Source of the DNA: Kiritimatiellia bacterium
Lineage (GTDB): Bacteria; Verrucomicrobiota; Kiritimatiellia; CAIQIC01; Lenti-01
Reading direction: 5' to 3'
DNA: 64,000 bases
Assembly: GCA_040768005.1 (NCBI GenBank)
Contig: JAXGNL010000008.1
Location: 5,053-69,052 of the forward strand
Part shown: positions 7,194 through 58,994 of the stretch, piece by piece
Position numbering within the stretch: position 1 is the first letter of the stretch
How the letters are laid out: each line of letters starts with the position of its first letter
Position numbers and translations under genes: made by a program
Notes under the pieces: model-generated
Seen by the model: only the letters and a program-made list of their open reading frames with translations
The model's database searches: none
What the model was told of the DNA's origin: nothing

Positions 7194-8465
7194 TCACCGG
7201 GCGCAGACCCGGGGCAGATCCCGCCAGCTGGCCGGAGAGGCGGCGGACCGGTGATGCTGGCGCATGTGCCAGGCATCGCTCTGCATCTCGCTCCCGTACC
7301 GGAGCCGCCGGTGCATCGGCGAACGGTTCAGCGCATCCAGGCATTTCATCAGGCGGTCCGTCCGGGCGCTGTCGCCGGGGGCCTCCGCAAACAGCAGCCC
7401 CTGCGCCGCGTGCTCCGGCACCAGATCCGCCAGCAGCACGCCCGCGCGCTGATACGCGAAGCCCGGCCGGAAAATGCGCTCCAGCCCGCGCTGCGCGCCG
7501 CGCACCAGCCGGCCTGAATCGCCCGTGGCCGGCTCCAGCGCCAGCGTCGCCCCGTTGGCGTACGCCGGCCCCTTCCCGTCAAACGGACTGGTGTGCACAA
7601 ACACCGACAGCGCCCCCGCGCGGAGCCGCCGGGCCCGCAGCTTTTCGCCGGCGCGCGCCGCAAACGCCGTCACGGCCGCCTCCACCTCCTCCCGCCGCGT
7701 CAGCCGACGGCCGAAACTGCGCGACACCAGAATCTGCCGGCGCGGCGGCGGCGCCATCTCCATCGGCAGGCACGACACCCCGGACAGTTCCCGCGCCGTC
7801 CGTTCCAGCACCACGCCGAACACCGCCCGCAGCCGGGCGGGATCCGCTTCCGCCAGCGCCCGGGCATGGACGATGCCCATGGCGCGCAGCCGCGCCCCCA
7901 GTCGCGTTCCCACGCCCCAGACCTCCTCGACCGGCAGCGCCGCCAGCGTGTCCGCCGGCGCGGGCCATTGCGTCCAGTCCAGCACCGGCACCGTCCCCGC
8001 CGCCCCCTTCTTCGCCAGCCGGTTCGCCACCTTCGCCAGGGTCTTGGTCGGCGCCAGCCCCACCGACACGGGAATCCCCGTCCACTGCTTCACCGTCCGG
8101 ACCATCTCCCGCCCCAGCGCCAGCCGGTCGCCCCGGAATCCCTCCAGGTTCAGGAAACACTCGTCGATCGAATAGACTTCCATCTCCGGGACGAACCCCG
8201 CCAGCACCTGCATGACGCGCCGGGACAAATCGCCGTACAGCGCATAGTGGGACGAAAACACCGTCACCCCGCGCGACCGGAACCGCGCTTCCACCTTGAA
8301 CCACGGCGCCCCCATCGCGACCCCCAGCGCCTTGGCTTCCCGGCTGCGGGCAATCACGCAGCCGTCGTTGTTCGACAGCACCACGATCGGCCGGCCCTCC
8401 AGCGCCGGCGCAAACACCCGCTCGCAGGAGGCGTAGAAATTGTTGCAGTCCGCCAGCGCAAACAT
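7194..8465 (-). CDS. umuC: Y-family DNA polymerase V subunit UmuC
   Basis: [38 protein letters not shown] and C-terminal WHMRQHHRS. True start is ATG at 8465 inside the longer ORF-track ORF. Confidence 0.93.
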
Positions 8466-8476
8466 GCCCCCTCCCG

Positions 8477-8929
8477 TCAATACGACCGGATGGCATGCGC
8501 CACCACGCCCCAGACGACCAGTTCCTTCCCTTCGTGAAAGACGATGGCCGGATATGCCGGGTTTTCCGCCTCCAGGCGGACCCCTCTGCGGCTCTTGCGC
8601 AGCCGTTTCACGGTCAGTTCCCCGTCCACCACGGCCACGACGATGGAGCCGTCGCGGGCCTCCCGCGCCCGGTCCACCACCAGCAGGTCGCCGTCGCGGA
8701 TGCCCGCCCCCGCCATCGAATCCCCCTGCACCTTCACCACGAACGTCGCCGCCGGATGCTCCACCAGGTGCTCGTTCAAATCCAGCGGCCCCTCCAGATG
8801 ATCGTCCGCCGGCGACGGAAACCCCGCGGCCACCCGGCAGAGGTACCGTCGCAGCGGCCGCGGCGGCGGATTCAGAACCACCGGCCGGACCCGGAGGGCC
8901 GAGCCGGAGAACGGACCATCGCTCCTCAT
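8477..8929 (-). CDS. umuD: UmuD (S24 peptidase, Pol V accessory subunit)
   Basis: [11 protein letters not shown] cleavage region, VQGDSM catalytic Ser, ELTVKRL catalytic Lys and WGVV. Lies directly upstream of umuC. Alternative start at 8941. Confidence 0.92.
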
Positions 8930-8932
8930 GAA

Positions 8933-8946
8933 TGAACGCATGTTCA
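8933..8946. promoter_or_regulatory. Putative LexA operator TGAAC-N4-GTTCA upstream of umuDC
   Basis: TGAACGCATGTTCA, just downstream of a TTGCGC-16-TATATT promoter-like pair on the minus strand. The same motif lies upstream of lexA. Confidence 0.8.
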
Positions 8947-9141
8947 CCAATATATTCCTTTCCCGGCCCGGCGCAAGCCAGGAGTGTCGCCTCTCCGGCT
9001 CGTCCCGCAACGGGCCCGGACACCTCATGTGATTATTCGGTTTTCATCCGTTGCGGCAGAACCGGAGAAAATTCCCGGTTCTTCTTGTCGGCGCTTCGAA
9101 ATACGGGTAGCCTTCCGGAAGAATTCACCCAGGACAGGTGT

Positions 9142-29210: not shown

Positions 29211-29282
29211 GCCCCGGAGAACTCCGGGGCGCTTTTCCCCGCATTTTCCATGCCGTGGAAATCCGTTTTCCACGGCATGGAA
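29211..29282. repeat. Composite palindromes between convergent genes
   Basis: GCCCCGGAGAACTCCGGGGC (29211-29230), followed by two TTTTCCAY-N3-RTGGAA units (29244-29261 and 29266-29282). Confidence 0.7.
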
Positions 29283-57967: not shown

Positions 57968-58070
57968 TTTTCCACACCGTGGAAAAAAGTTTTCCATGGC
58001 GTGGAAAACGGCGCGAAAATTTTTCCATACCGTGGAAAATCCCGAACCGTTTTTTCCACGCCGTGGAAAA
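57968..58070. repeat. Array of four 19-bp palindromes TTTTCCAY-N3-GTGGAAAA
   Basis: Copies at 57968, 57990, 58021 and 58052, between the convergent AKR and lexA genes. Confidence 0.9.
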
Positions 58071-58118: not shown

Positions 58119-58703
58119 TCAGTACTTGCGGATGACGGCGCGGACAATGCCGCCGATTTCCAGCGAATGCTTCGGGCGGATGAAGTGGTACTTGGGATTG
58201 GCGGGATCGAGCCGCACGCCGGCCTTGTCGCGCATGTAGTACTTCAGCGTCCACTCGTCATCCACCCGGGCGACGACAATATCGTTCAGGTTGGGCCGGG
58301 GGCCCTTTTCCACCAGCACCAGATCGCCCGGCATGATGCCGGCGTCGATCATCGAGTCCCCGCGCACCGTCAGCATGAAGGTGTTGTCCGGATTCTTCAC
58401 CAGGTAGTCGTCCAGCGTGATGGCTTCGGCGTCCTGCTGCTCCTCCTGGGTCGGAAAGCCGGCGGCGATGGACCCCAGCAGGCGGACCGTCCCCGTCAGC
58501 TTGGGCAGCAGCGCCAGACGGCCGTTGGCGTCCTTGATCACGTACCCATGCTCCTCCAGCCGGTTCAGCACCCCGAACACGGCGTTCTTGGACCGGTAGC
58601 CGAACAGATCGAGCATCTCGGCAAAGGTCGGCGCGCGGCGCTCGTCGCGCCAGAACCGGCGCAGCTGGCGAATCCGGCTTTCCAAATCGAGTACGCGGGG
58701 CAT
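58119..58703 (-). CDS. lexA: LexA repressor
   Basis: N-terminal wHTH (APTFAEMLDLFGYRSKNAV), IAAGFP cleavage site, VRGDSM Ser and EWTLKY Lys; GGAGG RBS. Confidence 0.9.
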   Translation of the reverse strand: MPRVLDLESRIRQLRRFWRDERRAPTFAEMLDLFGYRSKNAVFGVLNRLEEHGYVIKDANGRLALLPKLTGTVRLLGSIAAGFPTQEEQQDAEAITLDDYLVKNPDNTFMLTVRGDSMIDAGIMPGDLVLVEKGPRPNLNDIVVARVDDEWTLKYYMRDKAGVRLDPANPKYHFIRPKHSLEIGGIVRAVIRKY

Positions 58704-58746
58704 GGCATTATCCTCCGGTTGGGTGGTTATTCTGCCTCCATATAAC

Positions 58747-58760
58747 TGAACTCCTGTTCA
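58747..58760. promoter_or_regulatory. Putative LexA operator TGAAC-N4-GTTCA in the lexA promoter
   Basis: TGAACTCCTGTTCA lies in the 17-nt spacer between TTGCCA and TTATAT on the minus strand. Confidence 0.82.
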
Positions 58761-58816
58761 TCTGGCAAGTCTTTTTTCGCACGGGGTGTCGGATTGGGCG
58801 CATCTGCGACGCCAGG

Positions 58817-58994
58817 ATTGGCCCTCGTCGCGCGGGGCTCACGTCCCGCGCGGATCCACCCAACCGCACGCGGCAGGAGCCGTGTGCCGCGAAACAACAG
58901 GCTGTACGGCTGTCATCCCGAGCGGAGTCGAGGGATCTCAGCCGGGTCCCGCAGGCCGGGCCCGAGATGTCTCGACTTCGCTCGACATGACCGG
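58817..58994 (-). repeat. Inverted copy of REP-like elements B and A
   Basis: Reverse complement matches 47949-48045 (31-nt arm identical, 29-nt arm with one mismatch) and, more loosely, 48156-48219. Confidence 0.82.

Follow-up and report, generated by a model that had tools for sequence, protein, structure and literature searches.

Two copies of a short palindrome, TGAAC-N4-GTTCA, stand about 50 kb apart in a bacterial genome of the PVC group, one upstream of lexA and the other at the start of umuDC. The question raised by this locus is whether the palindrome is the operator through which LexA controls its own gene and the SOS response, and, if it is, how a bacterium of this group came to use a box whose core resembles that of Gram-positive bacteria. 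Among global regulators, LexA stands out for the many changes that its binding motif has undergone, with 17 LexA motifs reported by 2021 (PMC8565304). The stretch analyzed here, referred to as the window, comprises 64,000 nucleotides (C8:5053-69052) of a Kiritimatiellia metagenome-assembled genome (MAG) that is 86% complete (2.58 Mb, 66% G+C, 93 contigs). Kiritimatiellia lies within the PVC group in the NCBI taxonomy and is a class of Verrucomicrobiota in GTDB. Based on the position and conservation of the box and on the architecture of the adjoining protein, TGAAC-N4-GTTCA is very probably the operator of the host's single LexA repressor.

Two palindromes in the window and their promoters

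The palindrome TGAACTCCTGTTCA lies 44 nt upstream of the lexA ATG, and TGAACGCATGTTCA is found at the start of umuDC (Table 1). Their arms are the same, and their spacers differ (TCCT and GCAT, respectively). The two matches in the window compare with 0.03 expected, and none of 100 shuffled sequences reached two. An earlier note on this DNA had described this pair of palindromes and had named lexA and umuDC as their neighbors; both observations are borne out, the gene assignments by the TIGR00498, NF007621 and NF002955 scores given in Table 1.

Table 1. Features of the window bearing on the TGAAC-N4-GTTCA box (minus-strand features are marked -).
Feature	Position in window	Strand	Basis
Predicted LexA operator (SOS box), TGAACTCCTGTTCA	58747..58760	.	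same position in 43 non-redundant orthologous lexA promoters
lexA, 194 aa, divergent 'type A'	58119..58703	-	TIGR00498, 115.2 bits (cut-off 110.95)
Inferred lexA -35, TTGCCA	58763..58768	-	TTG kept at same distance from box in orthologues
Inferred lexA -10, TATATG	58739..58744	-	GTTAT..T block kept directly after box
Predicted LexA operator at umuDC start, TGAACGCATGTTCA	8933..8946	.	perfect box at predicted umuD start in 4/4 other family genomes
umuD, S24 autoproteolytic subunit of polymerase V	8477..8929	-	NF007621, 159 bits (cut-off 110); PF00717, 115 bits
umuC, Y-family translesion polymerase subunit, 423 aa, in umuD operon	7194..8465	-	NF002955, 430.4 bits (cut-off 431)
Inferred umuDC -10, TATATT	8949..8954	-	read from sequence; 2 nt upstream of box
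Inferred umuDC -35, TTGCGC	8971-8976	-	paired with the TATATT -10

Neither of the two promoters was picked up by a strict sigma-70 consensus scan, and the hexamers in Table 1 are putative. An alternative to TATATG as the lexA -10 is TTATAT, one base upstream. Three nucleotides separate the umuD box from the umuD ATG, and an alternative in-frame ATG (8944) falls within the box.

The lexA promoter was compared across relatives of the window LexA with 57-97% identity, taken from public genomes (Kiritimatiellae or Verrucomicrobiota MAGs). A perfect or one-mismatch box was present at the same place in 20 of 23 such lexA loci, and also in most of 30 further lexA loci from across the class. When 43 non-redundant lexA promoters were anchored on the box, the consensus read cTTGaa.c-TGAAC-N4-GTTCA-GTTAT..t. 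Each arm carries 1.4-1.8 bits of information per position and the 4-nt spacer 0-0.3 bits. The TTG precedes the box by 2-3 nt and GTTAT..T adjoins its other end, which puts a TTGnnn hexamer and a TATnnT block 17-18 nt apart, with the box taking up nearly all of the spacer. This shared layout supports the earlier placement of the box between the lexA -35 and -10, although the consensus scan calls no promoter there. The arms are nearly invariant, with their sequence kept and no covariation, and hence point to a protein site and not to an RNA hairpin. A hairpin or terminator reading was rejected on these grounds and on the length of the arms, which is 5 nt.

The box has been lost from the lexA promoter in one genus of rumen MAGs (L010, L011/L028; genome G114). 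At L010 a GTTC-N7-GAAC palindrome occurs downstream of the -10, and the stretch is degenerate at L011/L028. Despite this loss, G114 has retained perfect boxes on umuD and recA.

Copies across the host genome and the predicted regulon

The host genome contains five perfect copies of TGAAC-N4-GTTCA. Four lie on promoters outside called genes: those of lexA and umuDC, one that precedes the recA ATG by 17 nt, and one ~45 nt ahead of the ATG of the gene for a 705-aa SF1B PIF1/RecD-like helicase whose C-terminal region is HRDC-like. The fifth (C16:49478) is inside the reading frame of a 583-aa membrane protein. A count of five against 2.85 expected from 5-mer frequencies is not significant alone, and two of 59 other palindromes of the same composition also have five copies. 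Raw enrichment was thus rejected as proof, and the argument rests on the location of the box and on its conservation. Nine of the 10 copies of the two control palindromes are inside called genes. The genome-wide scan that had been suggested as a check is positive in this respect, with four of five perfect copies on promoters of lexA, umuDC, recA and a repair-type helicase.

The modest genome count, the two control palindromes that equal it and the copy inside a gene could be taken to mean that the two window copies are functionless palindromes that arose by chance. This explanation is effectively refuted by the two copies found in the window against 0.03 expected, by class-wide conservation with free spacers, and by an estimated probability on the order of 1e-11 for three random sites to fall within 100 nt upstream of lexA, recA and umuD.

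A position-weight scan of the genome identified a one-mismatch site, GGAAC-N4-GTTCA, with the same promoter layout before a gene annotated as 'putative DNA modification/repair radical SAM' (TIGR03916), and another, TAAAC-N4-GTTCA, within cTTGCA...GTATAT before a TcmP / radical-SAM-mobile-pair-like gene pair. The latter site, TAAACTAACGTTCA, is outside the window (G000 C1:88171-88184) within cTTGCAtataag...GTATATTG, and its layout is that of the lexA promoter. The pair consists of TcmP (TIGR04474) and a gene that matches 'radical SAM mobile pair protein A' (TIGR04471) below the cut-off and whose product reads as DUF5131/Gp37-like at its N-terminus. Judging from this site, the TcmP/Gp37-like pair may be SOS-induced. 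The helicase promoter (C20:30300-30322, also outside the window) has three half-sites, GTTCA-ATGC-TGAAC-TTTT-GTTCA, in which an extra inverted half-site abuts the box.

Two kinds of repeat were observed around these genes. Four copies of the palindrome TTTTCCAYRSCGTGGAAAA are located directly downstream of the lexA stop codon (window positions 57970-58068). The palindrome also occurs at 29246-29282, and the window holds seven matches to it against 0.17 expected. This palindrome looks like a REP-like extragenic repeat, and open reading frame read-throughs suggest that similar units repeat downstream of the helicase gene on C20. A dispersed repeat of ~50 nt (GCTGTCATCCCGAGCGGAGTCGAGGGATCTC...) occupies window positions 58907-58960, in the intergenic region upstream of lexA. 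It gave 70 BLAST hits over the contigs of the genome and is probably a MITE/REP-type element.

Among the five genomes of the family, the box is found on umuD and recA in all five, on lexA in four and on the helicase gene in three. For the radical-SAM gene, three family genomes show GGAAC-N4-GTTCA, and two less closely related members of the order have a perfect or near-perfect box there. In 28 class genomes from outside the family, the box is absent within 1.5 kb of recA; no recA operator shared by the whole class was found, and the box upstream of recA is limited to the window's own family. In many of these other genomes an upstream reading frame seems to run straight into recA, whose promoter may be further upstream. 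With the recA box confined to one family, the regulon is small and variable, in line with reports on other phyla. A complete class genome of 2,949,723 bp (G051) appears to have the same box.

Further perfect boxes were seen elsewhere in the class. At two loci (L125, G032:C7; L127, G062:C52), a gene whose product resembles a tyrosine recombinase or an integron integrase at its N-terminus has a perfect box ~100 nt upstream. Integron integrases are under SOS control elsewhere. In G114 (L131, contig C62), a perfect box immediately downstream of TTGACA-N17-TTTATT precedes the gene for a 205-aa protein (...LVFYHPNGKGTGCAVQFDL...), making this gene a candidate lineage-specific SOS gene.

A divergent LexA and the other LexA lineages of the class

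The lexA gene of the window encodes the only LexA in the host genome. The protein scores 93.1 bits with PF00717, and its TIGR00498 score is above the cut-off (Table 1); with the Pfam DNA-binding model PF01726 it scores 20.9 bits, below the threshold of 23.7. It aligns to E. coli LexA over residues 23-192, including the helix-turn-helix. In this alignment Ser117 (GDSM) and Lys154 (TLK) correspond to the E. coli catalytic residues S119 and K156, and the predicted cleavage site A81-G82 (IAAGFP) corresponds to VAAGEP. The helix-turn-helix, A81-G82, Ser117 and Lys154 are invariant in 21 orthologues. The AlphaFold model has a mean pLDDT of 77 (~87 in the N-terminal domain) and shows three helices (residues 7-21, 27-34 and 39-51), a beta-hairpin (55-65) and then the S24 barrel. 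The full-length LexA structures 3k2z and 3jsp (Thermotoga and E. coli) are the closest folds, with ~200 columns aligned. The S24 Ser/Lys dyad, the Ala-Gly site and the winged helix-turn-helix of a LexA are thus all present, and at the sequence level so are an autoregulatory operator and operators on recA and the translesion polymerase. By these sequence and model comparisons the window protein is a LexA, and public annotation already names the type-A proteins LexA.

In the mechanism that we propose, a LexA dimer would place one winged-helix domain on each TGAAC arm. The lexA box fills the spacer between -35 and -10, and the umuDC and recA boxes are just downstream of the -10, over the predicted transcription start; in either arrangement bound LexA would block RNA polymerase. 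Upon DNA damage, RecA-ssDNA filaments would trigger self-cleavage of LexA at Ala81-Gly82 via the Ser117/Lys154 dyad. Cleavage would in turn de-repress a small SOS regulon consisting of lexA, recA, umuDC and the PIF1/RecD-like helicase with its HRDC domain, probably together with the radical-SAM repair gene and possibly with the TcmP/Gp37-like pair.

Phylogeny was inferred using maximum likelihood from 71 LexAs, including E. coli LexA and none from Gram-positive bacteria, and the tree is unrooted. The type-A LexAs group together with 100/100 support and are the most divergent in the sample, on a branch of 1.88 + 0.58 substitutions per site that separates them from E. coli LexA and all other LexAs of the phylum. 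In a sample of 151 genomes of the phylum, type-A matches above 49% identity occur only in Kiritimatiellia, and the best hits elsewhere are at or below 37%. Of these two checks recommended in the earlier note, the taxonomic placement, made from the record titles of relatives, gives a PVC host, and the LexA phylogeny gives a long-branched clade seen only in its class.

The type-A recognition helix reads SKNAVFGxL. A sub-clade of type A (L050, L052 and L045, from genomes G054, G078 and G076) carries NAVYGPV in place of NAVFGLL, and in two of its three lexA promoters GTAC replaces GAAC half-sites, as TGTAC-GTTC-GTACA or the hybrid TGTAC-GTTC-GTTCA. This is a hint that recognition helix and operator may change together.

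Across 121 genomes of the class, the ratio of the box to a reversed control pattern is 263:48 in genomes with a type-A LexA and 149:71 in the others (Fisher p = 8e-6). Genomes without type A thus also have some excess of the box over the control, at ~2:1. That excess could be taken in favor of a real box bound by a regulator other than LexA that happens to control DNA-repair genes. We consider this very unlikely. The box is found in the promoter of lexA itself in ~45 orthologues, the genes that bear it are the canonical SOS core, and the changed helix NAVYGPV goes with GTAC half-sites in two of three promoters. It is also at odds with the class members that have other LexA types, whose lexA promoters have other palindromes.

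These members belong to families of Kiritimatiellia without type A, in which different LexAs accompany different conserved palindromes in the lexA promoter. The E. coli-like TACTGT-N8-ACAGTA (CTGT-N8-ACAG) occurs in two families (L054, L056 and L057; genomes G018, G003 and G037), and TACCAGAC-N4-GTCTGGTA (ACCAGAC-N4-GTCTGGT) in two families (L058, L061 and L062; genomes G013, G039 and G020). Several Kiritimatiellia genomes carry a type-A LexA together with a second, canonical-type LexA, and TATAC-N4-GTATA is present in lexA promoters of a second paralogue in genomes that also have type A (L070, L072 and L073). Overall, at least four lineages of LexA occur in the class, and the palindrome differs from one to the next: TGAAC-N4-GTTCA (with the sub-variant TGTAC-N4-GTACA), CTGT-N8-ACAG, ACCAGAC-N4-GTCTGGT and TATAC-N4-GTATA. 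Some genomes carry two lineages.

Two of these palindromes were rejected as marks of a regulon. The sole perfect copy of CCAGAC-N4-GTCTGG is that of lexA in three of three genomes with this type, and the sole perfect copy of CTGT-N8-ACAG is that of lexA in two of four genomes with that type. The extra perfect copies away from lexA number one in G018 and one in G003. Both palindromes are candidates only for autoregulatory operators.

Origin of the motif and comparison with known LexA boxes

The presence of other LexA types and other palindromes in neighboring families makes the class a good case for studying turnover of the LexA motif. The Verrucomicrobia LexA box was reportedly given as TGTTC-N4-GAACA by Erill et al. 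in 2016, and the earlier note had named the same motif as a contrast to the box of the window. The contrast is real. In sister-class lexA promoters TGTTC-N4-GAACA occurs twice in tandem at L107, in perfect form at L109 and L110 and with one mismatch at L106. It has no copy in the host genome and none in the lexA promoters of type-A LexAs. A text search for this motif gave no match in the literature covered. Two neighboring lineages therefore use the same half-sites in opposite order, with very different LexAs.

Two routes to this arrangement were considered. In the first, which we hold only tentatively, the GAAC-N4-GTTC core would be ancestral and kept in Kiritimatiellia, and TGTTC-N4-GAACA would be derived in Verrucomicrobiae. 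The T/A outer bases, against C/G in the Gram-positive boxes, speak against such retention, and so does the LexA that goes with the box, which is the most divergent in the sample (1.88 + 0.58), unlike what a conserved ancestral protein-DNA pair should be. The core is widespread, being the LexA motif of Firmicutes and Actinobacteria (PMC3323433), which favors this route.

The second route starts from the tandem promoter at L107, TGTTC-attc-GAACA-tg-TGTTC-agat-GAACA, whose junction is itself a GAAC-N4-GTTC palindrome. A tandem-site route is said to have been proposed by Erill et al. in 2016. A duplicated, fast-evolving LexA might have come to read the GAACA-N2-TGTTC junction of tandem boxes and then taken over the regulon, an account that we likewise hold only tentatively. 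It is consistent with the Kiritimatiellia genomes that carry type A plus a second, canonical-type LexA, and it agrees with a published model in which LexA is duplicated, diverges and takes up the regulon again (PMC8565304). The tandem arrangement is known from one clear example, which weakens the account, and so does the unrooted LexA tree, on which a duplication inside the phylum is presumed. As a sequence, the L107 junction offers one possible route between the two motifs. A broader proposal, which we advance with reserve, is that turnover of the LexA motif is under way in Kiritimatiellia, where type A would be a fast-evolved, class-specific LexA that took over the SOS regulon and whose operator would equal the junction of tandem Verrucomicrobia-type boxes. 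If true, Kiritimatiellia would provide a natural case in favor of the view that LexA motifs evolve by duplication, divergence and re-uptake.

Gram-positive LexA boxes have flanking C...G (CGAAC-N4-GTTCG). The Kiritimatiellia box has instead T...A outer bases, in ~92% of symmetrised sites. In its palindromic core GAAC-N4-GTTC and its 4-nt spacer it is identical to the Gram-positive (Cheo) box, and it would have the same role as an autoregulatory and recA/translesion-polymerase operator. The earlier attribution of this core to Firmicutes and Actinobacteria is correct: both Bacillus subtilis and Mycobacterium tuberculosis use it as their LexA motif (PMC3323433). The systems differ in their host, which is here a PVC bacterium, and in their protein, as a divergent, class-specific LexA clade presumably reads the box. 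The suggestion that a PVC organism uses a Gram-positive-like box therefore holds, with two qualifications. The PVC host, the box on SOS promoters and the lack of any TGTTC-N4-GAACA copy in the genome uphold it for the core; with T/A outer bases and a very divergent LexA, 'Gram-positive-like' fits the DNA and not the protein.

The Verrucomicrobia box belongs to the same GTDB phylum and is likewise a 14-bp palindrome with a 4-nt spacer and GTTC/GAAC halves. In Kiritimatiellia the half-sites are in the reverse order, and the LexAs of the two groups are parted by the long branch with 100/100 support. The regulons overlap in recA, a mutagenesis cassette and a radical-SAM/UDG repair system (PMC8565304). 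The cyanobacterial-type LexA box is of the same xxAC-N4-GTxx palindrome family. The arms of the window box are GAAC/GTTC and not GTAC; one type-A sub-clade has TGTAC-N4-GTACA in its lexA promoter.

Our literature search, which did not cover Erill et al. 2016, returned no paper linking Kiritimatiellia to LexA in a relevant sense. The present analysis adds a well-supported predicted operator for a whole PVC class that had none in the literature searched, and with this motif SOS regulons can be annotated in MAGs of the class, whether they come from gut, rumen, wastewater or marine samples. Compared with these known systems, the kind of switch is familiar; what is new here is a predicted LexA operator of familiar core in a lineage and with a LexA clade for which none had been described in the literature searched.
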